This document shows, in pieces, positions 1 to 45,499 of a DNA stretch of 64,000 nucleotides; positions within the stretch are counted from its first letter, which is position 1, and every line of letters starts with the position of its first letter. A program made the position numbers and the translations under genes. This DNA is from Haplodiscus bocki (Eukaryota), in contig OZ296655.1 of the NCBI GenBank assembly GCA_965655095.1, positions 34,844,001 to 34,908,000 of the forward strand. The letters are read 5' to 3'. Under the pieces are notes generated by a model that searched no databases, was not told the origin of the DNA, and was given only the letters and a program-made list of their open reading frames with translations.

Positions 1-511
1 AATAATTCAAATATACGAAGGTCTTATTTATAGAAAAAACCTCAAGACATCACCATTTAGAAAAGTTATAGACAAATTGTTTGCTTTAGGACAAAAAAGT
101 AAAGAGGACGAAAAAAATTTAATGCAAGAGTTAGTAAAATTAATCATGAATAGTGTATACGGAGTTCAAAACGAAAAGATATGAAAGAATCATAATATTG
201 TAAACCGGAAACTTGGATAAAAACAGAATATGATGAAAACTTATTGGATTATTGGAAATTTCCTAAAGGAAATTATATTGTAAAGATGAAAATAGACAAC
301 GGATTAGATGATGATTGTGATATTAAAAAAATTTTGCCTCGTCATATGGGAGCTTTTGTTTTAAGTAGTAGTAGGCGAATTATGAAAAGTTTTATCAGAG
401 AAATAGATGGATTTTGCAATAATAATATTTACTATGCACACAACGATAGAATGTATATTGAGAAGAAACAATAGGATGTTTTTGATGAAGCAAATTTGGT
501 TGGAGAGGAAT
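1..511 (+). pseudogene. Protein-primed B-family DNA polymerase (pPolB) fragment, unit A1
   Basis: Motif B ELVKLIMNSVYG (~127-162), LPRHMGAFVLSSSRRIM and a degenerate motif C (YYAHNDRMYI). Confidence 0.88.
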
Positions 512-915
512 TAGATAAATCGGAAAACAGCTTTGTTGTTTTTGACGATATATTGCAATCAAAACAAGAAAGCAATTTTGATCTGTTTTCAACTCGAGGT
601 AGACATCAAAATATTGATATAAACTACATATCTCAAAGCTGTCTTCACCTCCCTAACAATACTAATCCTAAAAAATCTAATATATTTATTTTTTTTAAAC
701 AAACTCTAAAAGATATCATATTATTATTTCAAGATATAGCTGGATTAGGTATGAATCTAGGGGAATGGAAACAGCGTTCTCGTAAAGCTTGGCTAAATGA
801 TTATGATTATTGACAAATAGACAGATTTGCCAAAATAGGAAAGAGTAGGTATACTATTAGAACTTGTAATGAAACTACTTACATAGAATGCACCCCTGAG
901 ACTAAACCTTTCCAG
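512..915 (+). pseudogene. A32/FtsK-like packaging ATPase, C-terminal half, unit A1
   Basis: Walker B FVVFDD and RGRHQNIDINYISQS. Walker A is absent because the gene is joined to pPolB. Confidence 0.88.
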
Positions 916-929
916 TTTTTATATATAAA

Positions 930-1769
930 TATATAAAATTCAATAAAAAATAAAAAGTGGAATAAAAGATTTACATGGCTTAGATGATCTACAATCAAAA
1001 TTAAATTAAGTTAGATTGGCTGAAAATTCAGGTAAACAAGGTTTTCATTATGATGTAAGAGAACTAGTCGAACCGATTACAAAAAATTAACAGATACAAG
1101 TCAAAAATAACTTGAGGAGACCAGATTAATTGCAAAAGCAATTGAGAATCTGGATGAATCACATAAATACGTTAAAACTTTAGAGTCAATGAATAAAAAA
1201 GGAGTAATTCAATCAACTTTGATTAGATCTATATGAAAACTCTTAGTACCGAAAATTAAAAATCATTTTCGATTATGAGATGGGCCTGATAAAGACAGTT
1301 GGAATGATTATAAAATGAATGGAGAAAAAGTTACATTATACGATGATAAGGTTCTTTTTAAAGACACTGGTGTACTTTTTGCGTTAAAAGGAGAAATTCT
1401 CTCAATGATAATTGATTATGATTTCAATAAAACACATTCACCTGATGCCAATCAATTTATTAATTTTTTTGGTTGAAATGCGTTTTGACATAAATGCAAA
1501 CGATAAAAGTTCTAGATATAAAACTTCATTGAAAAAATTAGTTTAATAAAATAGCTATTTTAGCATCTGGGTAAAAAACCATTTTCCTCCCAAAAAATCC
1601 AAATGAAAGATATGATAGATCAAAAATATTATTGCAGGAGAAACAAGCTGGAAATACTTCAAACATAGTTTTTGAAGAAATTGTTGCTATAGGTGATAAA
1701 TTATTAGAATACAAAGGTATTACTCCAACTCAACACAAAAAATTTATTCAAAAACTTAGTCTTATATAA
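930..1769 (+). pseudogene. Conserved Polinton ORF X (unknown function), unit A1
   Basis: Homologous to 10386-11217 and 47449-48137. Ends LLQEKQAGNTSNIVFEEIVAIGDKLLEYKGITPTQH. Confidence 0.6.
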
Positions 1770-1799
1770 CATAACATAAGTTTTTTTTACTTATAAAAT

Positions 1800-3046
1800 T
1801 GTTTAACATATCACAAAAACATGCTTTTGACAGACCCATTCTCAAATGTGGTTTTATTAGATATACTCCATTTTCGTTATACCTTGTAACATGAGAAAAA
1901 AAGTTTATTGATATACCCGGAGAAGATAGTCATATTTCTTTGAAAGATAGTTATCTTGAATTAAATTTTAATGTAACTCATACATCTGGTGCTCATGCTC
2001 GGTATGCAGATGGTGATCATCTATGATTAGTACGTTTAGATCCTGTTGCATTACTTAATAAATACAGATTGAGAAGTTCAAGTATGAAGGAAGTGAATGA
2101 AATAGACAATGGTCATGTTATTTGTTTAATGCGCAAATTAATATCGAGTAGCACACTTAGTGACGATTTATCAATTGGTTTTCATCGAAGTAACGAAGCT
2201 CGAGAAAAAGATTTGAATAATGATAAAACAACCGAAGGAAACTATCATGTTAGAATTTATTTAAAAGATACATTCCGTTTTGCAGGCACCAAGAGAATTG
2301 CACTTACGGCTTGGAATAAATGTTGGTGTTGCAGAGAAATAATGTTAATCATGTATTGATTCATTGGGCTGGAGCAAAAAATGCAGACAATCTTGCTTTG
2401 GCTGGAAAAGTTATTATACAGGATCTCAGTTGGTATATCCCACATTATACTCCAAATATATCAAATCAGAAATTAATGTTAGGACATATTGTATCGAAAG
2501 CTCCAAATGAAATATCATTTAACAAAAGATCATCTTTTGTGAAGGATGTGACTACTGAAAACAACTGGACAACTGGACCTTTGAGCAGGGCGTTGGACAT
2601 GGTATTGATAAATTCAATCAACAACATCAAATTAATGATTCATTTAATAGACCAAGTGTAGTAAATGGTCAATGCAATGTTGGAACTGAAAATTTCTCGG
2701 ATGCAGGAATAAATTTTAATTATGCTTTTGGTAAATATTCTCAAGCGTATGGTGAAACTGTTTCATTTTTCAGACATTTAGCTAAAATAATATTTTACAA
2801 CCGTTTTTTACGCAAAAAGATATTGTAACTTGTAATAATTGTCCGGATGGTAAGCCTGGTGACAAATTATATCTTTTTGATATACGTCATCATCAAGATT
2901 ATTGTTATGCTCAACCTATCAAAGTAAGGCTTGATTTCAGACCAGCCGTTCCAGCAGCAACAAATTTATTCGGATATGCTCTTTTATTAACGTGTAAATT
3001 AATGTCAATGAGTAGTGATGGACAAAGACAGTTTGATTTGATCTAA
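1800..3046 (+). pseudogene. Double jelly-roll major capsid protein, unit A1
   Basis: ISLKDSYLELNFNV, DLSWYIPHYTP and a C-terminal SSDGQRQFDLI*. About 1.25 kb, located between ORF X and the integrase. Confidence 0.75.
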
Positions 3047-3896
3047 GTGATATTTAAGTTTTTCAAAAGTTGTTTATTTCCTTTCGTAGTTATGTCTGTT
3101 TTTTTTTCAACAACGCTTCGTTATAACGCTCTGGTAATTTGTCAATGCGATAAGTCGGTATTGTATATTAAATAACTTCTGTAATTTCATATAATTTATA
3201 AGACGAGTGAGTCATATCAGATTTCGGAAACCTTACTTTAAATCTGCTGTTCTAACGAGATCGTTCACTTGAAACTTTGGTTTTACTTTCTTTCTTTGGT
3301 CTAATATATTCCGGAAAACGAATCTTTCATTTTTTTTAAACTAGCTTCAATCGGCGTCAACTTAGTCGATGAATGTATTCTATTATTATATTGTTTCGTT
3401 TTTGTAGTTAATACATCAATCCAATTGCTTTCACTCTTTTCAAAAACCGGGTTTTTATGTAGATCTCTTTCAGTACAATTAAAGCGTTCGGAAAAACAAC
3501 TCCATGGTGTGTATTTCTAGAATGATGTTTAATAAAATTTTGACTCAAGAAATTTTGATAAATTTTGTTGTAAAATTCCTTTCGTCTGTCTGTTTCGATT
3601 ATATTTGGTGTTCTTTTTGAAATTAAAGGATTTTTTTCAAAAGAGTCTTTTGTTGTTGTTTGAGCATCTTTATTTTTCAAAGGAACTGTCCATCCAGATT
3701 TTGAAAAATTGTCGATTACATCTAAATAATAACTATAACCACTCTTGTTTTCAGAACGATAGTCTTTTTAATCTAAAATGTCTGAACTCCAAAAGTTATC
3801 AGTGTAATAAACGTCTGTTTTGTTTGTGGGCTAAATCTTTTTGGGTGGTTTGGAGTAAATTTCGTTTATATATATTTTGATTGTTTTCTGAGTCAT
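3043..3896 (-). pseudogene. Retroviral-type (rve) integrase, unit A1
   Basis: KNKDAQTT..KRTPNIIETDRRKEFYN, HHSRNTHHGVVFxERFN, HSSTKLTP and KPKFQVNDLVRTAD. Confidence 0.88.
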
Positions 3897-4327
3897 TTAT
3901 ATCTGAGAATATCCAAGAATTTTTCAAATTCTCTAATCTCAGGAAATAACTCTGCACCGCAAATTGAATGATCCTATCTTTCGACGTTTTAATCATATTC
4001 GTAGAAATTGTCAGGTATTGGATCACCATATCAATATTATCAAGCCAAAATTTAATTCTGTTCTGGAGAGTATCAACTTGATCACCTTCACTTGGGTCTT
4101 GAAGACTGATTTTTATATAAATCTTGTTTAATTTGAGCTATCGTAGTGTCTTTATAACCAAATCTAAAAACAGCATCATCATCATCAGGATTGAGGGTGA
4201 CATAGTCTTTCATATTTGTAACCAACATAATATATGTTTTCAAAAGTCCACACAACGTTAAATCAACTTAGCTTCCAAAAATCATCTCCCAAATTACATT
4301 CTCAAGTATAATACCTTCTTCTTTAGT

Positions 4328-5339
4328 GAAGATGGTCATAATTCTCTGAAAGGTAGTTATCTTGAATTCGATTTTAATGTAACTCATAAAGCTGGTGCTC
4401 ATACTCGGTATGCAGATGGTGATCATACAAGATTAGTAAATTTAGGTCCTGTCGCATTATTTAAAATATACAGATTGACAAGCTCAAGTGGAAAAGATAT
4501 TTTCATGTTAGAATTTATTTAAAGGATACTTTCGGTTTTGCAGAGCTTCAAGATAATTGCACCTACGGCTTGGGATATAAGTTGGCGTTGCAGAGAATTA
4601 ATGATAATCATGTGTTAAATCATCGACCCGGAGCAACTAATGCAGATAACCTTGTTTTGGCTGAAAAAGTTTTTATACAGGATCTCAGTTGGTATATCCC
4701 ACATTATACTCCAAATTAACCCAATCAGAATTTAATGTTAGGACATATTGTATCTAAAGCTCCAAATGAAAGATCATATATCAAAAGATCCTCTTACGTG
4801 AAAGATGTGACTACTGAAAACAACTGGACAACTGGAACTTTGAGCTGGGTGTTGGAGATGGTATTGATATACCTATTTATGTAATAGTAGGATTTATGCA
4901 AAAGGATCCATTCAATCAACAACATTAAAATATTGATTCATTTCGTAGCCCAAGTGTAGTAAATGCTCAATGCAATATTGGAAGTGAAAAGTTCCCGGAT
5001 GCAGGAGTAAACTTTAAATATGCTATTGATAAAAATTCTCAAGCATATGGTGAAATTGTTTCATGTTTCAGATATTTAGCTAAAAATATTATCTTACAAC
5101 CGTATATTACGCAAAACGATACTGTAACTTCTAATAATTATCCAGATGGTTACCCTGGTTATAATTTTTTTTGATATACGTCATCATCAGGATTATACTT
5201 CTGCTCAACCTATCAAAGTAAGGTTTGATTTCAGACCAACCGTTCCAGCAGCAACAAATTTATCCGGATATGCTCTTCTAATAACGAAAAAAAAGTGTCA
5301 GTGAGTCGTGATGGACAAAGGCAATTCGATTTGATCTGA
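4328..5339 (+). pseudogene. Major capsid protein, 5'-truncated duplicate with internal deletion
   Basis: Nearly identical to 11377-12394. Begins abruptly inside ORF Y at ctttagtgaagatggtc. Confidence 0.75.
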
Positions 5340-6188
5340 GTGATATTTAGGTTTTTCAAAAGTTTTTTGTTTTCGTTCGTAGTTAATTCTGTCTTTCTCA
5401 ACAAGGCTTCGTTGTAACGCTCTGCTAAAGTGTCAATGCGAAAAGTCGGTATTGTATGAAAAAGAATTTCTGTAATTTTTGATAATTTATAAGACGAGTG
5501 AGTCATATCAGATTTCGAAAACGCATTCTTTATATCTGCTGTTCTAACGAGATCGTTTACTTGAAATTTTTGGTTTTACTTTCTTTTAGTCTGTCTAGTA
5601 TGTTCTGGAAAACGATTTTTTCATTCTTTTTTAAACTACTTGAATCGGCGTCAACTTAGCCGATGAATGTATTTTAATATTATATTGTTTCGTTTTCGTA
5701 GGTAATACATCAATCCAATTGCTTTTATTCTTTTCAAAAACCGGCTTTTTAAGTCGAACTCTTCTAGTGCAATTAAACTCATCGGAAAAAACAACTCCTT
5801 GGTGTGTTTTTCTAGAATAATGTTTAGGGTTATTTTTATTCAAAAAATTTTGAAAAACATTGTTGTGAAATTGCTTTCCTCTGTCTGTTTCGATTAAATT
5901 TGGTTTTCTTTTCGAACTTATGAGATTTTTTTCAAAAAAGTTTCTTTTTGTTTGAGCTTTTTTATTTTTCAAAGGAACTGTCCATGCAAATTTCGAAAAT
6001 TTGTCGAGAACAACTAAAACATATCTACAACATCTATTGTTTTCAGAACCATAATCTTTTAAATCTAAAATGTCTGTACTCCAAATGTTATCAATGTAAT
6101 AAACGTCTGTTTTGTTTGTGGGCTAAATCTTTTTGGGTGGTTTGGAGTAAGTTTTGCTTCTATAAACTTTGATTGCTTTCTGAGTCAT
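5336..6188 (-). pseudogene. rve integrase, second copy
   Basis: ORF 5631-5972: KRKPNLIETDRGKQFHNNVFQNFLNKNNPKHYSRKT..WIDVLPTKTKQYN. Confidence 0.88.
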
Positions 6189-6816
6189 TTATCTAAGAAG
6201 ATCCAATAATTTTTTAAATTCTCTTATATCGGGAAATATCTCTGCACCGCGAACAAAATGATCCAATCCTTCTTCGTTATAATCATTCTCGTAAAGATTA
6301 TTAGGTTTTGGATACCCACATCAATAATAATAAGCCAAATATTAATTCTGTTCGGGAGAGTATCAATTTGATCACTTTCACCTTGATCTTGAAGACTAAA
6401 ATTTTTGTTAATTAAATCTTGTTTAAATTGAGCTATCGTACTATCCTATAACCATATCTAAAATCAGCATCGTCATCATCAAGATCGAGCGTGGCATAGT
6501 CTTTCATATTTGTAACCATCATAATATATGTTTTCAAAAATCCACACACCGGTAATTCATCTTCACTTGCAAAAATCATCTCCCAGAAAGATTTCTCAAG
6601 TATGTTACCTTCATCTTTAGTGAGTTTTCTTTGTGGAAAATGTGCTGGCCACTAACCATTCACTTCTCGATGTAAATGCCTATACTAGAATAAAGCTGTT
6701 TATTCCATCGTTCTTCAGTTATGAACCTGTCACAAATTTGACAATATATGTCGTTAAAGATTGCCACTTTCGTATTAATATGAATCTATTCAGTTTTTAA
6801 AAAGTTACCTTTCCAT
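6189..6816 (-). pseudogene. ORF Y, zinc-finger protein of unknown function
   Basis: NDIYCQICDRFITEERWNKQLYSSRHLHREVNG. Other copies at 13243-13879 and, truncated, 3897-4330. Confidence 0.5.
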
Positions 6817-6819
6817 AAT

Positions 6820-7100
6820 TCGTGTTAATTCTTCTACTTTATTATTAATCTCTTCTATTTGATGTGTATGAGGTTTTCCATTCGGCTTATTTGTTTTAGA
6901 CGTTCCAAGTAACTTGTCTCTATTTTTTTCATAGAATTTTTTTCATTGATTTGATAATTTAGCTTTTTGTTCATAGTAACCTTTTAAACTTCTTTGAGAA
7001 TTACACTGTTTATGTTCTCTATATCTTCGTAAAAATTATCAAAACTTTTTTCAGTCTTGCAAATAACACAAGATTTAATCTCGTTTTATTTTAATATGTT
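6820..7100 (-). pseudogene. ORF Z, small CxxC zinc-ribbon/basic protein
   Basis: CVICKTEKSFDNFY. Homologues at 13885-14160 and 48460-48790. Confidence 0.5.
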
Positions 7101-7156
7101 TCTGTTGAGTAGATATTTTTTTTCATTAACTTCCTTCGTGATAGAAAAATAGTGTA

Positions 7157-9968
7157 ATGGACAAAACTCAATTAGCTGAAAAACAAAACTAAATTAAAAA
7201 AGAAAAAACAATAAGAATTATTTTTAAAAAAGAATTTTAATTGGAAAACAATGAATCAAATAAAAAAATAAAACAAAAAGAAAGAAAACAAAAAAGAGAG
7301 AACATAATAAATGAAGATATTGATTCATGTAGGTTTTTTTAATTGGCAACCTCCAACCAAGTACATGTTAACAGATTGAATCTACACTAAGTCAAAAACA
7401 AAATTTTACTAGATTATAAAGGTGATTTTGAGTTGAATGGATTAATGGTTATTGGACTTGTTGAACAGAAAACAAATTTTATATTCAGAAATATGGATGA
7501 TTTTGAAAGTTTTATAAATGCAACAGATATTGATTATGATAGCGAAGATGTTACGTTTACTGGGTATGTTTATAACTTCAATACACCTCAGTTCAATGTT
7601 GTTAATCGAAGTGCTTACGCTGAAGGTACTAATTATGGGCAAGAAATTGATGAATATTTTGGACAAAACTGTTATATTCCTACAAGTGTTCACTGTTTTT
7701 TAAAATCTTGTAATTATTTCACACAAAAAGAATATGCAGAAGAACTTTTAACTTTCATTTGAACTGAAAAAAATCGATCAGGTAATGACATCTGCTAGAA
7801 TTCAACCATTCTTTAGAAAACATTACATCACCATCGGTTCTTTAACCGTAAAGAAAAAATTCCTAGAGCTGTTACAGAAAGAAATAAAACATTGTTCATA
7901 CATAATAAAAATTTCTGTTTAACTTGGAAATACAAAATATTATTTTCAATCAAGCAATAAAAGACAAAGTAGAACTAAACTTTAAAGTTGTTGATAATGT
8001 CATACCCGATAAACATGTTCAAAAGTTGATTAAATATGAATACAAACCTAAAAAAGTTCAATCTCCATTAACTAATACAATTTGTATAATTTTGCATGAT
8101 TTAGAGACCTTTAATGAAGTCTGAGTTGTTCCGTATTGTAGTTGTATATATAAACTAAAAAAATTTCAGGTAAATTTTATCGAGATATGTCAGTAAAAAA
8201 TATCAAAAATGTCTGAAAGATTGGGTTGTTTTTGAAGAAACTGATTGTAATAATGAAATGTTAGATCATGTTTTAACATTCAAAAAAGACTCTAAAAGAT
8301 TCAATAACAAGATTGTTGAATATAATCTTTGTTTCATAGCTCACAACGTATCTGGTTCGATAGTTATGTTGTATTAAACAATTTACCCCGTCGGCGAAAT
8401 GTTGTTACTTTAATCAGAAACGGAGCTGGCATTTTCTGACCTAAAACATTTAATGGATTTGTAGATGAAAAGAAAAAAAACCCCACTATGTCCATTTCAG
8501 ATGTGGAAGATATCATATTAATAGTAGTTTGAAAACAACGGTACTAGTTACAAATACAACCAAGTTTAACGAAACAAGAAATGGAACATGATGAATTTTA
8601 TCAAGATAATTGGGAAGAGAAAGAAAACGAGTGGTTACCTCATGTCAAGAACGACGTGTTATCAACTGCTTTCTGTTAGGCTAGATATACAACGGGTATG
8701 GAATTTTTAACTAATTTTGGTATGAAAAACTCTTCAACTTTACCAGGCTTAGCAAATAAAATTTTCATTAGTTTAAGAGATGAGAATGATGAACCAATTT
8801 ACCTTTACGGATCCCTTTATGAGAAATTTTGTTCGAAATTCAGTAAAAGGAGGTAGATGTAATGCTTTTAATCAACCTTATCAATCAAGATTTCAGATGA
8901 AGTGACTAATATTATTTCAAGAGAATTAGACATTAACGGTAACATATGTGAGATTTAAGAAAAGTATTGTGAATTTTTAAACAAGTATAAAAAACTACAT
9001 GCAAAAAAATTTGATTCAAAAGATGATGATTACAGAGATATTAATCAAAAGGAGAAAGAAAAATACATTAACAAAAAGCTTAACATGCTACCAATTCATG
9101 AACAGTTGTCAAAATTAGATTGGAGTAAAACTCAAATGGTTTTTGATGCTACGTGGTTATTTCCTTCTGCTAAATGGGATAAAAGTTCGAAATAGCCTAA
9201 ATTAGAAAGTGGGTTTAATTTTACACCACATATGAATGATGTTTATGTAGAAGCATTCAATAATCAAACTTTTAACCAAGATGGAATCGAGAGTGCAAAT
9301 CTAAAAAAAAAATTATGATCTACCTGATTTGATATTTCAACATCTACCAGTTAAAGAAAAAGTGAAAAAAATAGAAATTTATAGGATGAGAAATGGATAC
9401 ATCCTTGACACTTTAACATCTGTTGATATTCAAGAAAATGTTAAAATTGGAGGAAAAGTAATTCAAATTTACGAAGGTGTTATTTATAGAGAAAACTTCA
9501 ACATACCACCCTTCAGAAAAGTTATAGGAAAGTTGTTTGCTTTAAAACAATAATATAAAGAGGAAAAAATTGATTTTTTGCGAGGGTTATTTAAATTAAT
9601 GAAGAATAGTTTATACGTAGTTCAAATACGAACAGATATTAAAGAATCATACTATTGTAAACCGGAAACTTGGATGAAAACAGAATATGATGAAAATTTA
9701 TTGGATTATTGGAAATTTCCTAATGGAATTATATTGTAAAGATGAAAATAGACAACGGATTAGATGATGATTGTGATATTAAAAATATTTTGCCTCGTCA
9801 CATGGGAGCTTTTGTTTTAAGTAGTAGTAGGCGAAATATGAATAGTTTTATCAGAGAAATACATGGATTTTGCAATAATAATATTCACTATACACACACT
9901 AGTAGTATGTATATTCAAAGACACAGTAGGATGTTTTCGATAAAGTAAATTTGGTTGGAGAAGAATTG
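7157..9968 (+). pseudogene. pPolB, unit A2, C-terminally truncated
   Basis: Exo I LHDLETF, exo II IAHNVSG, EWLPHVKNDVLS, VRNSVKGGRCNAF, motif A FDATWLFPSA, motif B KLMKNSLY and degenerate motif C HYTHTSS. Confidence 0.9.
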
Positions 9969-10368
9969 GAAATTTAAAAAAACAGCATTGTTGTTTTTGA
10001 CGATATGTTGCTATCAAAACAAGGAAGCAATATTGATCTGTTATCCACTCGAGGTAGACATCAAAATATCGATACATACTACAAATCTCAAAGCTATCTT
10101 CACCTCCCTTAAAATACTAATCTTAAAAAATCTAACATATTTATTTTTTTAAAACAAACTCTAAAAGATATCATATTATTTTTTCATGATATAACTGGAT
10201 AAGGTATGAATCTAGAAGAATGGAAACAGCTTTCCCGTATGGCTTGGCTAATTGATTATGGTTATTTACAATTAGACAGATCTGCCAAAATAGGAGAGGG
10301 TAGGTATACTATTAGAACTCGTAATAAAACTATTTTTATAGAATGCACCCCTGAGACAAAACCTTTAT
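9968..10368 (+). pseudogene. Packaging ATPase, C-terminal half, unit A2/A3
   Basis: IVVFDDMLLSKQGSNIDLLSTRGRHQNID. Same fusion point as at ~512. Confidence 0.88.
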
Positions 10369-10385
10369 GAATTTTTTAAATAAAA

Positions 10386-11217
10386 ATGATATATTCATTA
10401 AAAAAATGAATTAAAAGATTCAAATGACTTAGATGACCTACATTCAAAATTAAAACAAGTTAGAGTGGCTGAAAAAATAGGTAAACAACGTTTTCTTTAT
10501 GATGTAAAAGAACTATTCGAGCAGATCACAAAAACATCAACAGATGCAAGTCAAAAATTACTTGAGAACACCAGATTCAACACAGAAGCAATTGATAATC
10601 TGGATGAATCAAATAAAAATGTTACAACTTTAGAGTCAATGATTAAAAAAGGAGTAATTCATTCAATTTTGATTAGATCTATAGCAAAACCGTAAGTACC
10701 AAAAAATAAGAGTCAATTTCGATTGTTAGATGAGCCTGATAGTGATAATTGGAATGATAGGAAAAAGAATGGAGAAAAAAATACATTATACTTTATACCA
10801 TGATAAGATACTTTTTAGAGACACTGGTGTTGTTTTTACGTTGAAAAGAGATTTTCTCTCATTGATAACTGATTATGATTTTAATAAAACACACCCACCT
10901 GATGCGAATCAAATTATTAACTTTCTGGATGACATGAATTTTGATAAACATGCAAAAGATGAAAATTCTAGAGATAAAAACGTCATAAAATACTTTTTGA
11001 AAGAAAGCTATACTAGCATCTGGGTAAAAACTGTTTTTCTTCTAGAGAATCCAAATGAATTATAAGATAGATTAAATTTATTATTGCAGGAGAAACAGGC
11101 TGGAAATAGTTCAAACATATTTAATGCAGAAATTGTTGCTATAAGTGATAAATTATTTGAATACAAATGTATTACTCCAACTCAACAAAAAATATTCAAA
11201 AACTTAATCTTATATAA
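10386..11217 (+). pseudogene. ORF X, second copy
   Basis: Colinear with 930-1769; includes ORFs 10465 and 10730. Confidence 0.6.
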
Positions 11218-11246
11218 CATAACATATGTTTTTTTTACTTATAAAA

Positions 11247-12394
11247 ATGATTAACAAATCACAAAAACATGCTATTGACAGACCCATTCTAAAAGGTGAT
11301 TAAATTAGATAGACTTCACCTTTGTTTAATCTTGTAAATGGAGATAATGTTCAAATTTTCATTGATATACCCATAGAAGATGGTCATATTTCTCTGAAAG
11401 GTAGTTATCTTGAATTCGATTTTAATGTAACTCATAAAGCTGGTGCTCATACTCGGTATGCAGATGGTGATCATACAAGATTAGTAAATTTAGGTCCTGT
11501 CGCATTATTTAATATATACAGATTGACAAGCTCAAGTGGAAAAGATATTATTATGTTAGAATTTATTTAAAAGATACTTTCGGTTTTGCAGAGCTTCAAG
11601 ATAATTGCACCTACGGCTTGGGATATAAGTTGGCGTTGCAGAGAAATAATGATAATCATGTGTTAAATCATCGACCCGGAGCAACTAATGCAGATAATCT
11701 TGTTTTGGCTGAAAGAGTTTTTATACAGGATCTCAGTTGGTATATCCCACATTATACTCCAAATTAACCCAATCAGAATTTAATGTTAGGACATATTGTA
11801 TCTAAAGCTCCAAATGAAAGATCATATATCAAAAGATCTTCTTATGTGAAAGATGTGACTACTGAAAACAACTGGACAACTGGAACTTTGAGCTGGGTGT
11901 TGGAGATGGTATTGATATACCTATTCATGTAATCGTAGGATTTATGCAAAGGGATCCATTCAATCGAGAACATCAAAATAATGATTCATTTCGTAGACCA
12001 AGTGTAGTAAATGCTGCTCAATGCAATAATGGAACTGAAAACTTCCCGGATGCAGGAGTAAACTTTAAATAAGCTATTGATAAAAATTCTCAAGCATATG
12101 GTGAAATTGTTTCATGTTTCAGATATTTAGCTAAAATAATATTTTACAACCGTATAATACGCAAAAAGATACTGTAACTTCTAATAATTATCCAGATGGT
12201 TACCTTGGTTATAATTTAGTTTTTTTGATATACGTCATCATCAAGATTATAGTTCTGCTCAACCTATCAAAGTAAGGTTCGATTTCAGACCAGCCGTTCC
12301 AGCAGCAACAAATTTATTCGGACATGCTCTTTTATTAACGAATAAATTTGTGTCAATGAGTAGTGATGGACAAAGACAATTTGATTTGATCTGA
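11247..12394 (+). pseudogene. Major capsid protein, third copy with internal deletion
   Basis: IFIDIPIEDGHISLKGSYLEFDFNVTHKAGAHTRYADGDHTRLVNLGPVALFNIYRLTSSSGK. Confidence 0.78.
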
Positions 12395-13242
12395 GTGATA
12401 TTTAATTTTTTCAAAGGTTCTTTATTTTTTTCCGTAGTTAATTCCTTCTTTTTCATAAAGGCTTCGTCATAACCTTCCGGTAAATTCTCAATGCGGTAAG
12501 TCGGTATTGTATCATAAATAGTTTCTGTAATTTCATATAATTCATAAAACGGGTGAGTTTTATCAGATTTCGAAAACTTTTCTTGAAATCTGCTGTTCTA
12601 ACGAGAACCTTTACTTCAAACATTGGTTTTATTTTCTTTCGTTTGTCTAATATTTTCTGGAAAACGAATCTTTCATTCTTCTTCAAACTAGCTTGAATCG
12701 GCGTCAACTTAGAAGATGAATGTATTCTATTGTTATATTGTTTCGTTATTGTAGGTAATTCGTCAATCCAATTGCTTTCACTCTTTTCAAAACTGGCTTT
12801 TCAAATAGATCTCTTTTAGTACAAATAAAGCGTTCGGAAAAACAACTCCTTGGTGTGTATTTCTAGAATGATGTTTAATATTTTTTTGATTCAAGAAAGT
12901 TTGATAAATATTGTTGTAAAGTTCCTTTCGTCTGTCTGTTTCGATTAAATTTGGTTTTCTTCTTCAACTTAAAAGATTCTTTTCAAGAGAGTCTTTTGTT
13001 GTTGTTTGAGCATCTTTATTTTTCAAAGGAACTGTCCATCCAATTTTTGAAAAATTGTCGAATACATCTAAACAACAACTATAACCTGTATTGTTTTCAG
13101 AACGATAATCTCTTAAACCTAAAATGTCTGAACTCCAAATGTTATCAATGTAATAAACGTCTGTTTTGTTTGTTGACTAATTCTTTTTGGGTGGTTTGAA
13201 AAAAATTTCGTTTAAATATATTTTGACTGTTTTCTGTGTCAA
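12391..13242 (-). pseudogene. rve integrase, third copy
   Basis: Colinear with 3043-3896 (KPNLIETDRRKE, ERF, LTPIQASLKKNE). Confidence 0.88.
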
Positions 13243-14218
13243 TTATGTCTGAGAAGATCCAAGAATTTTTCAAATTCTCTAATCTCAGGAAATGTCTCTG
13301 CACCGCGAACAGAATGATCCTATCCTTCGTCGTTGTAATCATATTCGTAAAGATTATCAGGTACTGGATCCCCATATCATTAATTTTAGGCCAAAAATTA
13401 ATTCTGTTCTGGAGAGTATCAATTTGATCACCTTCACCTTGATCTTGAAGACTGAAATTTTTGTTTAAAAAACTTGTGTAAATTGAGCTATCGCAGTACC
13501 TATATAACCATATCTAAAATCAGCATCATCATCATCAGGATCGAGTATGACATAGTCTTTTATCTTTGTAACCATCATAATATATGTTTTCAAATATCAA
13601 CACACCGGTAAATCATCTGCACTTCCAAATATCATCTCCCAAAAAGCTTTCTCAAGTTTAATACTTTCATCTTTAGTTAGTTTTCTTTGTGGAAAATAGG
13701 CGGGCCAAAAACCAAAAACCATTCACTTCTCGATGTATTTGCCTACTAGAACAAAGCTGTTTGTTCCATCGTTCTTCAGTTTTGAACCTGTCACAAATTT
13801 GACAATATATGTCGTTAAAGATTGCCACTTTCGTATTAATATGAATCTTTTCAATTTTTAAAATGTAACGTTTCCACAATTCGTGGTAATTCTGTGACTT
13901 TATTATTAATATCTTCTATTTTTTGTGTATGAGGTTTTCTGTTCGGCTGATTTTTTTTTAGACGTTGCAAATACCACATCTCCATTTTTTCATAGTATGT
14001 TTTTCGTTGATTTGATAAATTATCTTTACTTTCATAGTAAAGTTTTGAACTTCTGTCAAAATTACACTGTTTACATTCTCTTCATTTGTTGTAAAAATTA
14101 TCAAAATACTTTTCAGTATTGCAAATAACACAAGATTTACTCTCCATTTAATTTTTATGTTATTATTGATAAGATATTTTTATTTCGAAAAATTTCTTCT
14201 CGTTAAATGAACAGTGTA

Positions 14219-17200
14219 ATGGACAAAACTCGATTAGCTGAAAAACAAAATAAAGTTCCAAAAGGAAAAGCAATATGAATTAATTAAAAAACAGCTTCAA
14301 TTAGAAAACAAAGGAAATCAATTAAAAAAATAAAACGAAATGAAAGAAAACGAAAAAGTGAATACATAACAGATGAAGATATTGATTTTGGTAGGTTTTT
14401 TTGAATCACCACCCTCCAACAAAGTACATGTTTACAGATTTAATCTACGTGAAATTAGAAACAAAATTTGGCTAGATTATAAAGGTGATTTTGAGTTGAA
14501 TGGATTAATGATTATTGGACTTGTTGAACAGAAAACAAATTTTGAATTCAGAAATATGGATGATTTTGAAAGTTTTATAAATGCAACAGATATTGATTAT
14601 GATAGCGAAGATGTTACGTTTACTGGGTATGTTTATAACTTCAATACACCTCAGTTCAATGTTGTTAATCGAAGTGCTTACGCTGAAGGTACTAATTATG
14701 GGCAAGCTTTTGATGAATATTTTGGACAAAACTGTTATATTCCTACAAGCGTTCAGTGTTTTATAAAATCTAGTAATTATTTCACACAAAAAGATTATGC
14801 AGAAGAACTTTTGACTTTCATTTGAACTGAAAAGTATCGATCAGGAGTAATGGCATCTGGTAGGATTCAACCATTCTGTAGAAACTATTATATCAACATC
14901 GTTTTTTTTAAAGGTAAGGAAATAACTCCTAGAACTATTACAGAAGGAAATAAAACATTGGTCATGCATAATAATCAATTCTGTTTAATTTGGAAATCAC
15001 AAAATATTTCTTTCAATCAAGCAATAAAGGACGAATTAAAACAAAACTTTAAAATTGTTGATGATGTCATATCCGATAAACATGTTAAAATCCGATAAAC
15101 ATGTTAAAAAATTTATTAAAAGTGAATAGAAACCTTAAAAAGTTCAATCTCCATTAACTAATAAAATTTTGCATGAGTTAGAGACTTTTAAGAAAATCCG
15201 AGTTGTTCCATAGTGTAGTTGTATATAAAAACTAAAAAAAGTTCAGGTAAATCTTATCGAGATATATCACTGAAAAATATCAAAATTATCTGAATGATTG
15301 TGTTGTTTTTAAAGGAACTGATTGTATCAATGAAATGTTAGATCATGTTTCATCATTCAAAAAAGGATCTAAAAAAAACAATAACAAGATTGTAGACTAT
15401 AATTTTTTTTCCATAGCTCACAACGGATCTGGTTTTGATAGTTATACTGTATTAGACAATTTACCCCAATAGCGATGTGTCGTTTATTTATTCAGAAACG
15501 GAGCCGGCCTTGTTTCACTTAAAATATCTAATGGATATGTAGATGACAAGAAAAAAACACCCCACTATGTCCATTTCACATGCGGAAGAGTTCTTATTAG
15601 TAGTAGTTTGAAAACAACAGGTACTAGTTACAAATTACAACCAAGTTAATTGAAACAAGAAATCGAACATGATGATATTTATGAAGATAACTGGGAAGAG
15701 AAAGAAAACGAGTGGTTACCTTATGTTAAGAACGACGTGCTATCAATTGTTTTCTGTTATGCTACATATACAACGGGTATGGAATAATTAACTAAGTTTG
15801 GTATGAAAAACTCGTTAACATTACCAAGTTTAGCAAATAAAACTTTTATTAGTTTAAAAGACGAGAATGATTAACCAATTTATACTTTTACCGATCCCTT
15901 TATGAGAAATTTTGTTCGAAATTCAGTAAAAGGAGGTAGATGTAATGCTTTTAATCAACCTTATCAATCTAGATTCCAGATGAAGTGACTAATATTATTT
16001 CAAGAGAATTAGACATTAACGGTAACATATGTGAGATTTAAGATAAGTATTGTGAATTTTTAAACAAGTATAAAAAACTACATGCAAAAAAAGTTGATTC
16101 AAAAGATGATGATTACAGAGATACTAATCAAGAGGAGAAAGAAAAATACATTAACAAAAAGCTTAAAATGGTACCAATTCATGAACAGATGTCCAAGTTA
16201 TATTTGAGTAAAACTCAAGTGGATTTTGATGTTACGTCGTTATAGCCTTCTGCTATGCGGGGTAAAACTTCAGTATATCCTAAAGTAGAAAGTTGGTTTA
16301 ACTTTAAACCACATATGAATGATGTTTATGTAGAAGCATTCAATAATCAAACTCTTAAGCAAGATGGAAACGAGAGTGCAATTTTGAAAATAAAATTTTA
16401 CAATCCACTTGATTTCATTTTTCAACATCTACCAGTTATAGTAAAAGTGAGAAAAAAGAAGGTAATACGATGAGAAATGGATATATCATTGACACTTTAA
16501 CATCAGTTGATATTAAAGAAGTTGTTAACATTGGAGTAAAAGTAATTCCAATTTACGAAGGTCTTATTTATAAAAAAAACCTCAAGAAATCACCATTTAG
16601 AAAAGTTATAGACAAATTGTTTGCTTTAGGACAAGAAAGTATAGAGGACAAAAACGATTTAATGCGAGAGTTAGTAAAATTAATCATGAATAGTGTATAC
16701 GGAGTTCAAAAACGAAAAGATATTAATGAATCATAATATTGTAAACCGGAAACTTGGATGAAAGCAGAATATAATGAAAATTTATTGGTTTATTGGAAAT
16801 TTCCTAATGGAATTATATTGTAAAGATGAAAATAGACAACGGATTAGATGATGATTGTGATATTAAAAATATTTTGCCTCGTCGCATGGGAGCTTTTGTT
16901 TTAAGTAGTAGTAGGCGAAATATGAATAGTTTTATCAGAGAAATACATGGATTTTGCAATAATAATATTCACTATACACACACTAGTAGTATGTATATTC
17001 AAAGACACAGTAGGATGTTTTCGATAAAGTAAATACGAACAGATATTAAAGAATCATACTATTGTAAACCGGAAACTTGGATGAAAACAGAATATGATGA
17101 AAATTTATTGGATTATTGGAAATTACCTAATGGAATTTTTATTGTAAAGAGAAAATAGACGACGGATTAGATGTTGATTGTGATATTAAAAATACTCTGC

Positions 17201-17769
17201 CTGTTCATCTGGGATCTTTTGTTTTGAATAAGAGTGAGCGAATTATGAATAGTTTTGTCAGAGAAATTAATGGATTTTACAACAATAATTATTACTATAC
17301 AGACACTGATAGTAAAAAATTTTAGGATGTTTTTGATAAATCAAACTTGGTTGGAGAAGAATTATGCCAAGGTAAAAACAATTACAAATCAAGAGATATC
17401 TTTTGATCTCTTTACTTAGCTCCTAAAAAAACAGATGTATTAACGACTAATGCATATGGTGTTTTTAAAGAACACAAAACGTTAAAGTGCTTAAAAGATA
17501 GTAACCGGTTATTAGACACTTCTCAATATTTTAAAATGACAGAAGGTAAAAAAATATCTTCGTTCTTGCTTAAAACTTGGAAACAGTCGTTTGATAGCGG
17601 AATAACTATACCTACAAAGATGAGATTTTGTATTGAATGTAATGATTAAAAAAGGTGCAATAAATTTAGTATTCAAATCAAAGAAAATAAACATTTTGAA
17701 GCTAATTTAAACGAATTAAAAAGACACCCCCCTAACGAATATGGTTATATGCTTCCTTATTTTAAATAA
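14219..17769 (+). pseudogene. pPolB, unit A3, reaching the C-terminus, with an internal ~320 bp duplication
   Basis: IAHNGSGFDSY, DFDVTSL*PSAM, KLIMNSVYG, intact motif C YYTDTDS (~17290-17313) and YLAPKK. Confidence 0.92.
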
Positions 17770-17865
17770 TAGAATTATTTATTTAAAAGAATCTATCCAA
17801 ATAGTAGTTCAATTTTTTTAGGTTTTTTTGAAAAGAATTTTTTAAAAAGAAATCCTCCCTAGTAA

Positions 17866-18350
17866 ATGAATGGTATTATGAACGAGAACCAGTTAACCGT
17901 TGTTAAAAATTATGAAATAAGTAAACCAATCATTCACAGAACAGATTCTATAGTTGATAAATGTTATAGAGATTGTCATAATAAACATTTTCATACAAGT
18001 AATTATAGATGTATATGTTATATTAAATTTACAAGTATTGCTAATAATGGTGTACTTATTTCAACAGTTTCTGATAGAAACATGGGTTTGTATGAATCAA
18101 ATAAAAAATTGAAAATTGCTGGACAAAGAGGTTTTATTTGTTTTCAAATAAACAAACTAACAATAAGAATATATTCACATCAACGATTGATAAACATAAG
18201 TTGTTTTGTGAAATTTCAAATACCCATGTGTCATCTTGTTTGAGTAATCCCACAAAATCTAGAATATATAGAAAAAAACTTTTGCAAAAATATGGAAAAT
18301 CCTTTTCATTTTGTATGTCAGAAAAGGATCAATCATTTAAACTAACAATT
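17866..18350 (+). pseudogene. ORF W, conserved gene downstream of pPolB
   Basis: MNENQLTVVKNYEISKPIIHRTDSIVDKCYRDCHNKHFH is homologous to ORF 52771 (MNENELYVVKEYKFDNPLITEVDSIIDKGFRDC). Confidence 0.65.
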
Positions 18351-18739
18351 GCATGTAAATTTATAAATTCTCAATTGAACTGTTTTATAATTTATCATTA
18401 TCAAAGAATTTCACGTTCATCAATTTTTAATTATAAAATGTCAACATAGTTGGTATTGCGGTCTCATTTAGATGTAACAGTGAACGCGCGATTTTTTTGT
18501 TGATTCTATAAGTCTGTAAATGTGGAATTTCAAAAACCACGCTTTCATGCGTCTGTGTTTAGTTCGAGTATGATTTTTGTGTGGTGGAAAATAATGGGTA
18601 AGTTAGTGTAGATCGGTTTTATGAGTCAAAAAAAGGTGAGGCTCGTAAGAGCCGAACAGTAATAAAAGCGAGATGCGAGGTGTGCCGAGCCGGTTATTGA
18701 GCGCAGCAACTGTGCCACCGGGTAAATTACGGTTTTATG

Positions 18740-19370
18740 ACTGAGTCGAACGAAATGACAATCAGTCGTAAGTCCGGAGTTTACTATATTGTTGATGCTT
18801 CTGACGTAGTCAACGCCCTCGTGATGCCACTTTTTCTGCATGTTTTGGAGAAAGAGCTTCACTTCCCAATGTTGTATGAGCGGAATGACAAGATGTTTTG
18901 TTTGATACGCCACGTCTGCTTTGCAAGGTCTTTCATTTGCTTGCATGATGCCATCACTGATCAGGAAAGGTAAAATGCCAATCAATTGGCCCAAGTTACG
19001 AACGCCTATTGTCTTTCTCAAACTGAAAAATCTGCTGCCAAAATTTTCTTGCTGCATTAGGGACCAAATGCTGTGTCGATCTTCTTTCAACAGGTCAACC
19101 AGAGAAAAATCCATGGAATTGGGAAGCTTTTCCAAGCATCGTTCTATCATGAACTTGAGTCAGATGATCTGTAAAAGCCGTTCCCAAACAACTTACTTTG
19201 AAAGCAAAGTTGAAAAAAATCAACGAGGCAAAAATTCAATTGCCGATATTTGTCGATCAGATTATTACCGTTAAGCAAAATGGATTCTTCCACTTTCAAC
19301 CGAAAAGGGTCAACCAGTAACTAAATTTATCTCTGGTATGGCTGGTACCAAGAATTTTCAGATTAATTAG
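18740..19370 (-). mobile_element. BEL/Pao LTR retrotransposon pol fragment (connection to integrase HHCC region)
   Basis: LPFLISDGIMQANERPCKADVAYQTKHLVIP..H..HHEGVDYVR matches the LxPFxDxxGxxRxxGRL..KHPIIL..HxG pattern. Confidence 0.75.
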
Positions 19371-36705: not shown

Positions 36706-37719
36706 AAATCTCGACATGGGAAAATCTGACATGGGAAAAATTTGAAATTTCGTAGTTTATATTTATATTATTTTACTGTCTTCAATTTTGAGAATAATTG
36801 TTTGATAAATTTTTCGCAATTGATTTCTTCGGCCGATATTTTCCAAAAATACGTCAGAACTTCGGACAAAAGGTGTTTTGATTTTAAAATAACAGAAGGG
36901 TTACTATTAGGTGTTTTAAGTGGTCCTGGGTACTCTTGCTTCCTGAATCACAAATTGAGATTATTTGCAAAACAAACTTAAAATAGGAACCGCAGCGATA
37001 CTGCGATATTTTTTTATGTAGTGGCTCAAGAGAGAAAATGACCGAAACTTCACTAGAAAAAACAGATATTTCCACAAAAACAAAATTCAAAATCAAATTT
37101 ACTAATAATTAATTTCAGCTGTTTAAAAAAGTAAAAACGTCTAAAAACCAAAACAACCAAAGTTTCAGTCAAACTTTCATTCGAATGTTTTTGCAGCTTT
37201 AAAAAAATGGAAGGTAGTTTTCGAAGAAATCTGCAAGAATGTGTAAAATTTTTCGCCGGTTTTTTTGCACAAAAAGCTTGACAAAAAGTGGGTGTTGTCT
37301 GAGAAAGTGAGAGAAACATCAAGCCAAGAACGCCCAAGTCAGCTCAAAATATTCACAGGGTGCCTTTTTTTATTTTGAAAACTTCAGAATTCTTCGAAAA
37401 AAGTTAAGAGACCTCGATTTGATTTTGTGAAAAAAATTCCAAAAGTTGAGTTAAGATTCTTAAAGGTACTTCGCTCTTTCATATGCTCTCTGCGAAACAG
37501 TTGCAAAAAATGTTTGACACTGACAGTTTGAAAAAAAGATTTACAAAACAAAACTTATCACAAATAAGATTAAGACCATTTTCTGAAACCTTTTTGAGGA
37601 AGTACTACTGTAAGCGTTATATCAAGAAAACTGTTGGAATTTGCAATCCAGGCGAATAATGGATTCAAAGGGGGAATTAGGAAATGCATTGTTGTTTGCT
37701 TTTTCAACTCAATATTCCT

Positions 37720-38011
37720 TATGCTGCCACATTGCGTTTGACTAGGCAGTTTTTGCTTACCTTTTGCCAGTCGGTGCTTTACTGAAAAGTGAAGAGTTCA
37801 ACTATCACGGTAACTTTTTTAAGACATCACTCACAAATCGAAACGATCAATTTTGCTTTCTTCGGCTCCTTCCACAGAGAGTCGCCTGCGGAAAGTACCA
37901 AATTCTCGTGATAACTTCCTTGCAATTAGTGGACGTTTTTTGGAAGGCGAAAGCGGAAAGTTCTTGTCACAACATTTTATCTCTTCTCCCCAAAAATGCT
38001 GACAAAATATT
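37720..38011 (+). repeat. ~290 bp interspersed repeat, copy 1; target site of element C
   Basis: Near-identical to 54820-55110. The similarity stops at aaaatatt(a), where AGTAGT begins. Confidence 0.85.
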
Positions 38012-38092
38012 AGTAGTGTGCAAAAAACAATTGACGCCAAAAGACGCGGACGCACCAAAAAACTAAGTGAAAAACCATGAAAAATTAAACTA

Positions 38093-38236
38093 TATCGAAG
38101 GGGGTACACAGGTATGAAAATTTGATTTTGTAAAAATATTCTTTCATTTATCTATCAATGGGGGTACACAGGAATGAAAATTTAATTTTTAAAAAATTTT
38201 TTTTGAATAGTCTTATCAATGGGAGTACACAGGAAA
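38093..38236 (+). repeat. Left TIR region: three 60-61 bp units (tatcaatgggggtacacagg)
   Basis: Units start at 38093, 38153 and 38214. Reverse complement found at 53333-53412. Confidence 0.85.
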
Positions 38237-38804
38237 AAAATTAAAACATTCATCCACACGCAAAACCATTTCAACGAGCAGGCGGTTATCGAATTGGTTT
38301 TTTACAATTTCATTCATATGGAAAAAGCAGGTGGATATTAAAATATTCATCCACGTAATATTCAAATGATTAGAAAAATATTATGTTGCTAGGCAAAAAA
38401 TCAACGCAGAAACAACTCATGAATTTTTTTACAAGAAAACCACCAAAAAATTTTTTTCATATTTTTCACTTTCACATCAGACGTACACAACAGTTTTCAC
38501 ATTGGACTATCACAGCACACAACCCACAATCAACCATATTCGAAGATACGAGAAGAATATCACACACGATGATTATCAACTATCCACGAAACCCATACAA
38601 CGAAAACGACTCAAGATCATGAAGATGGTGGTATCATGGAAACGATTTAACAACAGGATAGAATGAGATTGTGAGGAACAGAGTTTATTCGAAGACATCG
38701 TGTGTTATGTTTTATATTTGATCGTGATTGTGATATCACATATGTCAGTTTTAGAATTTAATCTGAGTTAATATGTTTTTTTTTTGGGGGGGGGGGTTTA
38801 TATA

Positions 38805-39190
38805 TAATAGCTTATTATTACAAGTTTTAGGATCCATTTAAGCAAGATTCTTACATGTTTTATGATTCGTTTAAGCAAAGCTTTCACATTATAGCTTATT
38901 CTTACATGTTTTATGATCCGTTTATGCAAAATTTTTACATTATAGTATATGCTTACATGGTTTAGGATTGGTTTTAGGATTCGTTTAAGCAAGATTTGAA
39001 CATTATATCATATCTTTACATGTTTTAGGAACAATTTTACTGAATGTCAACCATTATAGCCTATGTTTACTTTTTTAAGGAACCGTTTAACTGATCCTTA
39101 TACATTAAATCATATCTTCACTATCTTCACATGTTTTAGGAACCGTTTAACTGATCCTTATACATTATAGCCTATCTTCAAATGTTTGAG
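38805..39190. repeat. ~51 bp tandem repeat
   Basis: Units like gattcgtttaagcaaagctttcacattatagcttattcttacatgttttat, about 7-8 imperfect copies. Confidence 0.85.
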
Positions 39191-39419
39191 GATAGGACAT
39201 ACCATCTTACCATGGTGAAAGTTAACATTCGGCGGTTCAATACCAATCGATAGATCTTACCATAATTAGTATACCCTGAAAGTTAGAGCTTCGTACCTAT
39301 CAAAGTTTTCGAGAAAAACAATTTTGAAAGAGAGCAAAGGGTTAAAGCCAATTAGAAGCCACTTAAGCGTAAACTTTTTTTCGTTTTCCCACAGTATATA
39401 CAGATCAAGAAAGCAACGA

Positions 39420-39955: not shown

Positions 39956-39989
39956 GAACTTATACTTGTTTGTTCAAAAATAAGAATAA

Positions 39990-40565: not shown

Positions 40566-40649
40566 TGATATGAAATAATATGTATTCATATAATTATAGG
40601 AATAACAATATAAGAGAATGTGAACAAAAAATTGAAAGTTTTACAAAAA

Positions 40650-41192: not shown

Positions 41193-41359
41193 TTAACTAG
41201 ATATTTTGTCATAAAAAAACATTAAAACGAATATACTTCAAGATTCTGTTAACTTTGTTGATAACACAAAGAAACCAAATAAATAATTTAAAATAAGTTT
41301 ACTTTTGTTTGTTATTTTTTTATGTTTGTTTTGATTTTTTGTTTTATTTAAATATCTAA

Positions 41360-45398: not shown

Positions 45399-45499
45399 TC
45401 TATTAAAAGAGCTTTCAAAAATTTAAAACTAATAGTTTTTGTGTTGGTCAAAAACACTACAGTGGTACAAAGAACATTTTTGGTGAGATAACTTTTGAT

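Follow-up and report, generated by a model that had tools for sequence, protein, structure and literature searches.

A decayed Polinton in Haplodiscus bocki with a 7-kb core probably triplicated in place by chromosomal tandem duplication

The window analysed here, a stretch of 64,000 nucleotides from contig OZ296655.1 (positions 34,844,001 to 34,908,000), opens inside a degenerate Polinton whose left end lies 14.7 kb beyond the window's left edge. Position 0 is contig position 34844000, and negative values lie to the left of the window.

Left TSD: -14731 to -14726, outside the window
Degenerate Polinton: -14725 to 18793, plus strand, 33,519 bp, of which 1..18793 lies in the window
Outer left TIR: -14725 to -14302, outside the window
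Second terminus at the left end, without a partner: -14301, outside the window
Protease-like gene, mapped from an Atlas feature match: -10899 to -10555, outside the window
Penton candidates: -10248 to -9196 and -8349 to -8086, outside the window
ATPase 5' part with a degenerate Walker A region: about -6670, outside the window
Unit 1: -6529 to 513, plus strand, 7043 bp, the last 513 bp (pPolB) in the window as 1..513
Junction J1, pPolB to ATPase: 511..513, plus strand, 3-bp microhomology TTA, in frame, within open stretch 475-810
Unit 2, first part: 514..4327, plus strand, ATPase 3' part, an ORF, capsid gene 1799-3043 and an integrase remnant
Unit 2, young 2385-bp copy of -5125 to -2740: 4328..6712, plus strand, 10 differences
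Unit 2, pPolB part: 6713..9968, plus strand, carrying conversion tracts
Junction J2: 9966..9968, plus strand, breakpoint identical to J1
Unit 3: 9969..17364, plus strand, 7396 bp, containing a 323-bp direct repeat and a conversion tract in common with unit 1
pPolB C-terminal part, present once, to about 17766, then the last ORF (17866-18303): 17365..18366, plus strand
Right TIR: 18367..18793, minus strand, differing from the outer left TIR at 48 of 422 columns
Right TSD, GATGCT: 18794..18799, plus strand, the same 6 bp preceding the left end

The element is thus bracketed by a 424-bp TIR pair and flanked at both ends by a perfect 6-bp TSD. The same repeat brackets other copies of the family at a spacing of 13-21 kb, and among the five relatives with both ends read the TSD is perfect in three, 5/6 in one and 3/6 in another. 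An unrelated small transposon was considered as the source of the 424-bp inverted repeat and ruled out by this bracketing and by the fit of the TSD. The termini read AATAATATAGT... and AATAATAT then AGT; tested against the vertebrate Maverick end-motif classes, (AGT)2//(ACT)2 or (AG)3//(CT)3, they fit neither, and because they read AATAATATAGT... we do not place the element in those classes. The left terminus is doubled, which is odd. Towards the right end, the region 17365..18366 is homologous to 52767-53221.

With TIRs, a 6-bp TSD, an integrase, a protein-primed PolB and a DJR major capsid, the element carries Polinton markers, and it is degraded by many stops and frameshifts. The integrase is recognized by an rve match above the cut-off (E=1.2e-11) at 5634-6122 on the minus strand. 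The window's own pPolB pieces have no Pfam match; an open stretch of a relative matches PF03175 below the Pfam cut-off (E=4.6e-5), and that stretch maps onto all units at 45-68% identity. A capsid homologue, P0002, matches PF21738 above the cut-off and maps to four copies (54-82% identity). For the putative A32-like ATPase, three stretches match Pox_A32 at E=0.002-0.023, all below the cut-off; a 325-aa relative gave no match, and its Walker A motif aligns to the element's left arm. The protease-like gene also lacks a Pfam match, and its Atlas feature match (0.94), to a cluster in which 14% of the members carry Peptidase_C5, is a lead only. The penton candidates, so labelled from gene position, found no support from Pfam, Atlas (0.75) or PDB sequence. 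Pfam searches of short broken frames were mostly blank, with 2 of 18 informative and, in a second batch, 1 of 10, a weak A32 match.

Within this element lies an internal triplication (-6529 to 17364) with units of 7043, 9455 and 7396 bp. Unit 1 runs from the ATPase 3' part through an ORF, the DJR capsid gene and a minus-strand integrase to pPolB up to the junction. The capsid gene at 1799-3043 is the sole copy retaining 2085-2232, while 4328..6712 holds a 5'-truncated capsid gene together with the integrase stretch at 5634-6122. The initial annotation had described a TIR-less head-to-tail array with a period of about 7.06 kb. The period proved not to be uniform, with 9455 bp between the junctions. 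Nor is the array TIR-less: it sits within one TIR- and TSD-bounded element and looks TIR-less because the window edge cuts that element. Counting units by extending leftwards, as had been proposed, gave three units and two junctions in total, with no further repeat in the 60 kb left of the window. As that annotation had stated, TIRs, a protease-like gene, penton candidates, Walker A and the pPolB C-terminus are all missing from the repeated unit itself; the genes it lacks sit in the element's single left arm and 3' end. Unit 1 carries on from the ATPase 5' part of the element, and unit 3 runs into the element's own pPolB 3' end. The array is colinear with its parent element, which encloses it. 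That two subfamilies were joined at 17031 into a chimera is unsupported for pPolB, the 3' pPolB piece grouping with the units at 99/99.

The motif ttggttggaga(g/a)gaatt does recur at 496, 9951 and 17347 as first noticed, continuing as pPolB at 17347 and entering the ATPase just upstream of Walker B at the other two positions, where the join is a TTA common to both genes and in frame for both. The J1 open stretch matches Pox_A32 at E=0.0022, below the Pfam cut-off. No function is expected of this join, because being in frame has a prior chance of 1 in 3 and the join lies behind frameshifts common to all units. Among the matches listed in two BLAST searches, 2 of 41 and 2 of 40 span the junction, and these are J1 and J2; a 20-mer and a 33-mer across it, searched genome-wide with up to two mismatches, gave two matches each. 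Finding the junction at unlinked loci had been proposed as the test of a mobile or circular unit, and the genome searched yielded only the two junctions of this locus.

The copies have visibly diverged, as had been remarked, by 13-14% pairwise and by about 12-16% outside young tracts. Pooled differences between units are even across codon positions 1, 2 and 3 (0.130, 0.135 and 0.139; p=0.49), whereas differences between units and other family copies, at 0.18-0.23, 0.16-0.20 and 0.24-0.30, show an excess at the third position (p=3e-14 in the one pair tested). In the tree the units group as a single clade (support 100/100), and they share two firm one-base losses in pPolB relative to 7-9 outgroup copies each, one of them falling where the units are 82-85% alike; for a third candidate lesion the state of unit 1 is ambiguous. 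Because unit divergence is neutral and the pPolB lesions are common to all three units, the duplication would be later than inactivation, and its setting was most likely chromosomal. These lesions could, though, have spread by old conversion. Changes common to all three units still show a third-position excess (21/702, 15/730 and 34/590; p=0.0007), so the element had been dead for only a short time when the first duplication took place.

Superimposed on this divergence are younger events. Unit 2 carries conversion tracts at 7409-7643, 8571-8835, 8810-9083 and 9653-9950, and a tract in unit 3 (10711-12317) common with unit 1 differs at 54 of 1594 positions. The 2.4-kb templated copy at 4328 is recent (0.4% diverged) and has one microhomology end, its left edge being junction K (2 bp) and its right edge a homologous return; among 40 matches listed, one spans K, namely K itself. 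A 323-bp direct repeat (16708-17030 and 17031-17363) joins at 17035 with 4 bp, so that microhomology of 2-4 bp, including the 3 bp of J, occurs at all three junction types. Pair-shared changes along 17 windows of an ancestry scan alternate between units 1 and 2 and units 2 and 3; two windows had too few outgroups and one was skipped. This alternation points to repeated conversion; of the suggested expansion by unequal crossing-over, local expansion stands, whereas a single clean crossover is not seen. A 7.05-kb duplication followed by a 9.45-kb one would have made 514-4327 and unit 3 young sisters, and was rejected because the two are 12-15% apart and lack any young tract in common; compared with every other copy, 514..4327 likewise holds none.

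We consider it likely, at a probability of roughly 80%, that a decayed Polinton had its 7-kb core triplicated in place by chromosomal tandem duplication, with later conversion and templated copies. This agrees with the initial annotation's option of one tandem duplication, later expanded, which is supported by the enclosure, the unique junction, the neutral divergence and the shared lesions. A Polinton of about 16.7 kb would have integrated by its own route, leaving TIRs and a 6-bp TSD, and begun to decay; a chromosomal break would then have been end-joined at 3 bp of microhomology, linking pPolB to the ATPase 7.04 kb upstream in a tandem duplication with J. Out-of-register recombination between the two copies, an unequal exchange, may have added the third unit with the same J, after which the units would have mutated neutrally and swapped short tracts by gene conversion. 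The two templated copies, each with one microhomology end, would have arrived in this setting, the 2.4-kb copy at 4328 recently and the 323-bp copy at 17035. We infer this order of events, and the repair pathway, by analogy, may have been SDSA failure with microhomology end-joining.

Such duplication looks frequent in this genome. Kilobase-scale tandem duplications occur in three of seven family loci fetched from TIR or ATPase matches (one of the seven, C3, was chosen after two TIR matches had been seen) and kilobase-scale tandem arrays in both of two random 100-kb host samples; five further family loci, chosen for repeated matches, give no rate. One family duplication takes in 1.27 kb of flank beyond the TIR. 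A chromosomal process suffices, since the same type of duplication is found in host DNA and across a TIR boundary. Other family copies have their own arrays with different breakpoints, and of their junction sides the 7 of 14 that could be mapped all lie elsewhere than J.

It is scarcely credible that a TIR-less 7.04-kb circle, with pPolB joined to ATPase and either amplified by rolling circle or mobile, entered the chromosome as a concatemer. An identical junction does recur twice, and structure alone does not separate a circle from local duplication, because re-entry into the parent by recombination would give the same topology. Yet the array keeps its parent's order and lies inside it rather than being inserted apart without the parent's ends, there are two junctions only, the genome searches show J nowhere else, the 7 mappable of 14 junction sides in other family arrays fall elsewhere, and a 7.04-kb unit has no terminus to act as a protein-primed origin. 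The defective circular subgenome of the initial annotation also fits poorly with the neutral divergence and the shared pPolB lesions; ordinary chromosomal tandem duplication being frequent here, we do not regard the unit as a mobile defective circle. An assembly artefact, of the whole array or of the young tracts alone (0.4-3%, through consensus mixing of units or haplotypes), is very improbable. The four tracts of 235-298 bp are short and the 2.4-kb copy differs in an allele-like 0.4%; none of the 32 short-read contig pieces listed (of about 29,600) spans J or K, although the sides of their listed joints, of at most 30 letters, make them unable to test junction spanning. Against this, the units are 12-16% apart with a neutral codon pattern, 144 kb contain zero N gaps, and short-read contigs agree, at 0 differences, with stretches specific to unit 2, to unit 3 and to the right end. 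Read depth speaks on both sides: inside the 2.4-kb copy, two pieces of run X1 reach 47-49, compared with 20-31 in the remaining six, and run X3 gives 10-11 against 5-9, while the one piece listed there for run X4 has a depth of 26, no higher than the 10-30 of single-copy pieces. The runs come from two samples of a single study, and the assembly itself may have been built from them.

The first duplication, or both, might instead have arisen in an already defective Polinton copied in trans by an active relative, the oversized molecule integrating with its TIRs before neutral decay and conversion; we hold this to be unlikely. The divergence of the TIR pair (11.4 +/- 1.5%) is no more than the 13-14% of the units, which counts against post-insertion duplication because such duplicates should be younger than the TIR pair. 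This clock is noisy, the left TIR being nearer another locus (9.5%) than its partner. The shared stem, mostly under purifying selection, and the odd doubled left terminus would also suit copying in trans, whereas no second insertion with J was found in genome searches, the same kind of duplication occurs in host DNA and across a TIR boundary, and decay after insertion is the simplest reading of the pPolB lesions common to the units. Similarly doubtful is the specific version in which a broken-polymerase Polinton had its 7-kb core amplified on a linear molecule and integrated as a defective-interfering-type genome of about 23-31 kb.

Three known systems come closest. Maverick/Polinton elements, according to PMC8097293, have eight core ORFs, TIRs and a 6-bp TSD, and most copies are mutationally degraded; ours resembles them in its TIRs, perfect TSD, pPolB, rve integrase, DJR capsid and decay, with candidates for an A32-like ATPase and a protease-like gene, and differs in that it is twice as long, at 33.5 kb, through the internal triplication of 7 kb and, relative to the (AGT)2 or (AG)3 motif of vertebrate Mavericks, in its AATAATAT then AGT ends and doubled left terminus. 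The main text of 10.1101/158386, in which Polinton or Maverick occurs 0 times, treats internal-to-internal TE tandems, their expansion by unequal exchange and a rolling-circle concatemer model. The array likewise repeats an internal-to-internal junction expandable by unequal exchange; in the LTR elements of that text, however, internal junctions are attributed to deletions spanning whole elements that lie head to tail in tandem, whereas here one element and one TSD enclose the array and no inner TIR junction lies between units. In C. elegans helq-1 mutants, according to PMC8654963, failed SDSA and polymerase-theta end-joining produce tandem duplications of about 100 bp to 10 kb with microhomology and templated insertions. 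The size range and the 2-4-bp microhomology at all three junctions are alike, although our array arose naturally, is old and belongs to an unrelated genome. The literature covered, mostly non-subscription papers without supplements, yielded nothing on internal arrays in Polintons.

As a Polinton finding, a fossil with an internal triplication carries little weight. If amplification on the linear molecule before integration were true, the locus would testify to defective-interfering genomes among integrating Polintons, and the family's internal arrays would record template switching in Polinton replication, not host repair. The value of the locus is as a datable recorder, where the sequence of duplication, conversion and templated insertion can be worked out from TIRs, TSD, codon positions and many relatives.

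With 60 kb added to the left of the window (negative coordinates) and 20 kb to the right, the resulting 144 kb, which contain no N, were compared with themselves. The leftward extension proposed in the initial annotation places the array, as three units, within one element:

-14725 to 18793: enclosing element, 33,519 bp
Left arm, single copy: protease-like gene, penton candidates, and the 5' part of the ATPase with a degenerate Walker A region
-6529 to 513: unit 1, 7043 bp
514-9968: unit 2, 9455 bp
9969-17364: unit 3, 7396 bp

The ATPase, protease and penton assignments are suggestive only, and the penton candidates are so named from their gene position. The element is bounded by a 424-bp terminal inverted repeat (TIR; 48 of 422 columns differ between the pair), GATGCT adjoins both ends as a target-site duplication, and the left partner is the best non-self match of the right TIR among 41 listed. 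The array had seemed to lack TIRs because the window begins inside unit 1; it in fact lies between this pair. The element would measure about 16.7 kb if units 2 and 3 were removed; other loci bracketed by the same terminal repeat have spacings of 13–21 kb, and perfect 6-bp duplications flank three of the five relatives whose ends were both read. By the features defining Maverick/Polinton elements in the passages of PMC8097293, this is a degraded Maverick/Polinton, with TIR, target-site duplication, integrase, pPolB and DJR capsid. The left terminus is doubled (-14725 to -14137): immediately inside the TIR that pairs with the right one comes another family terminus, partnerless and 95% identical over 162 bp to the TIR of G000:C5:74.33M. 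This arrangement may reflect a nested insertion then deletion, or template switching at the end.

The window contains three copies of the motif TTGGTTGGAGA (496, 9951, 17347). As initially described, pPolB reads on past the motif at 17347, and the copies at 496 and 9951 share a junction into the ATPase a few codons upstream of Walker B; the native ATPase side lies outside the window, at -6532 to -6530. The join is a TTA common to both genes and, since it is a Leu codon in each, is in frame. We give it no function, because an in-frame join has a 1-in-3 prior by chance and this one lies behind shared frameshifts. A distance of 9455 bp separates the two junctions, at odds with the concatemer of a ~7.06-kb unit first envisaged. 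Among 41 matches listed for a 401-bp query across the junction (40 of 2410 candidates scored), two span it, both within the window, as do two of 40 listed for a 200-bp query across the second junction; genome-wide pattern searches with a 20-mer (exact) and a 33-mer (two mismatches allowed) yield two matches each. The search thus speaks against a mobile junction, within the reach of patterns that could miss a copy diverged by 20% and of BLAST searches scoring the best candidates only.

Four sequencing runs (two samples of one study, possibly the source of the assembly) were available as short contigs. Listed pieces are identical (0 differences) to the unit-specific stretches 798-1058, 2557-2960, 3418-3696 and 6758-7065, and likewise to 10864-11188, 12381-12607, 13914-14207, 15416-15706 and 17968-18567; none of the 32 listed, all short, crosses a junction. 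Depth in run X1 is 47–49 for two pieces inside a 2.4-kb copy in unit 2, versus 20–31 for the other six; run X3 agrees (10–11 versus 5–9), and run X4 does not (26 versus 10–30).

The units are a patchwork. The 2.4-kb copy, 4328-6712, has only 10 differences from -5125 to -2740 across 2385 sites, and its insertion accounts for most of the additional length of unit 2; the new junction at its left edge has 2-bp microhomology, and the one spanning match among 40 listed is that junction itself. The stretch 10711-12317 differs from unit 1 at 54 of 1594 sites, four tracts of 235–298 bp show 1.3–2.3% differences and one of 183 bp 2.7%, and one of these tracts, 16737-17034, terminates at a 323-bp direct repeat with 4-bp microhomology. 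A 148-bp loss is common to three capsid copies and absent from the copy at 1799-3043. Moving along the unit, pair-shared changes switch from one pair of adjacent units to the other, and no single crossover point emerges. A second duplication of 9.45 kb, our initial model, was ruled out: 514-4327 differs from unit 3 by 12–15% throughout.

In an 865-column pPolB alignment the three units form one clade (100/100) against nine other copies. With codon frames set by the natural open stretches of relatives and young tracts left out, pooled differences among units are even across codon positions 1, 2 and 3 (561/4309, 581/4319, 599/4311; p=0.49), versus 0.18–0.23, 0.16–0.20 and 0.24–0.30 between units and seven other loci; the units therefore diverged as dead DNA. 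Length changes private to one unit number 11, 13 and 7 over 6796 bases. A further five are common to all three units, among them three one-base losses in pPolB, of which one is ambiguous in unit 1 and two were upheld against 7–9 outgroups each (-1300 and -567 in unit 1, 8159 and 8887 in unit 2, 15236 and 15970 in unit 3). Recent conversion does not explain the first of these, as the units are just 82–85% alike there. Substitutions common to all three nevertheless retain a third-position excess (21/702, 15/730, 34/590; p=0.0007), and divergence gives the TIR pair (11.4 +/- 1.5%) no greater age than the units (13–14%). Both count against an element dead before duplication and place the first duplication soon after inactivation; they also suit an alternative of low probability to duplication in the chromosome, in which the duplication took place on a defective molecule that was being copied in trans.

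Three of seven family loci retrieved through TIR and ATPase matches have kilobase-scale tandem duplications (4 x 3.34 kb, 2 x 3.6 kb and 2 x 4.75 kb). The last, at a locus chosen after two TIR matches had been seen, includes 1.27 kb beyond the TIR and is therefore chromosomal in origin. Five loci chosen for repeated matches have array periods of 3.0–11.8 kb, one being a triplication at about 90% identity; across seven arrays, 7 of 14 junction sides could be mapped, none at the pPolB–ATPase junction. Both random 100-kb host samples, neither with a match to the element, and both flanks contain kb-scale tandem repeats, making a Polinton-specific mechanism unnecessary, although two samples give no rate.

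Several of these loci have further features. The element at G000:C11:21742880-21768357 has a perfect target-site duplication, a TIR of just about 130 bp and an internal 4 x 3.34-kb array (95–97% identity); G000:C6:48511357-48535198 likewise has an internal triplication (about 8.5 kb, about 90%), with a different breakpoint. A rearranged copy at G000:C1:3725001-3755000 has two same-orientation termini, and the parts of its pPolB are separated by about 16 kb of other sequence with long open stretches of its own. The host sample G000:C4:60034083-60097707 is mostly diverged tandem arrays (periods 1.4–1.75 kb), and young host-DNA duplications lie at -39648 to -31806 (4.7-kb offset, 98.4%) and 71523-77394 (3.7-kb and 2.2-kb offsets, 99.4%). 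Within the window, a second degenerate Polinton-family element (about 38090-53430) lacks kb-scale internal duplication; its left arm is about 70% identical to that of the first, and its end repeats are unlike (60-bp repeats at 38093-38242, inverted at 53320-53427). Large nested inverted repeats, foldback-like, run from 53442 to 64000 and on to about 67890 (53442-57092 with 67890-64216, 56117-59569 with 64215-60752; 93–94%). An ORF in this region (53675-54181) is similar to one at the C11 locus. A 300-bp dispersed repeat (37711-38012 and 54809-55111, 95% identical) has a third, inverted copy near 66.2–66.5 kb.

The most likely course, to which we give a probability of roughly 0.8, is that the element integrated and decayed early, that a tandem duplication with microhomology at its ends then arose in the chromosome, that out-of-register recombination yielded the third unit, and that gene conversion and templated insertions followed. 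The repair pathway is suggested by analogy with PMC8654963, whose relevant passages describe duplications, from about 100 bp to 10 kb in size, that show microhomology and templated insertions; those of 10.1101/158386 describe both expansion via unequal exchange and a rolling-circle alternative. Passages of PMC11131425 and 10.1101/2021.06.02.446622 hold nothing on internal arrays, and searches of a partial literature library listed no paper on such arrays in Polintons. The array is real, an ordinary triplication in place within a fossil element.
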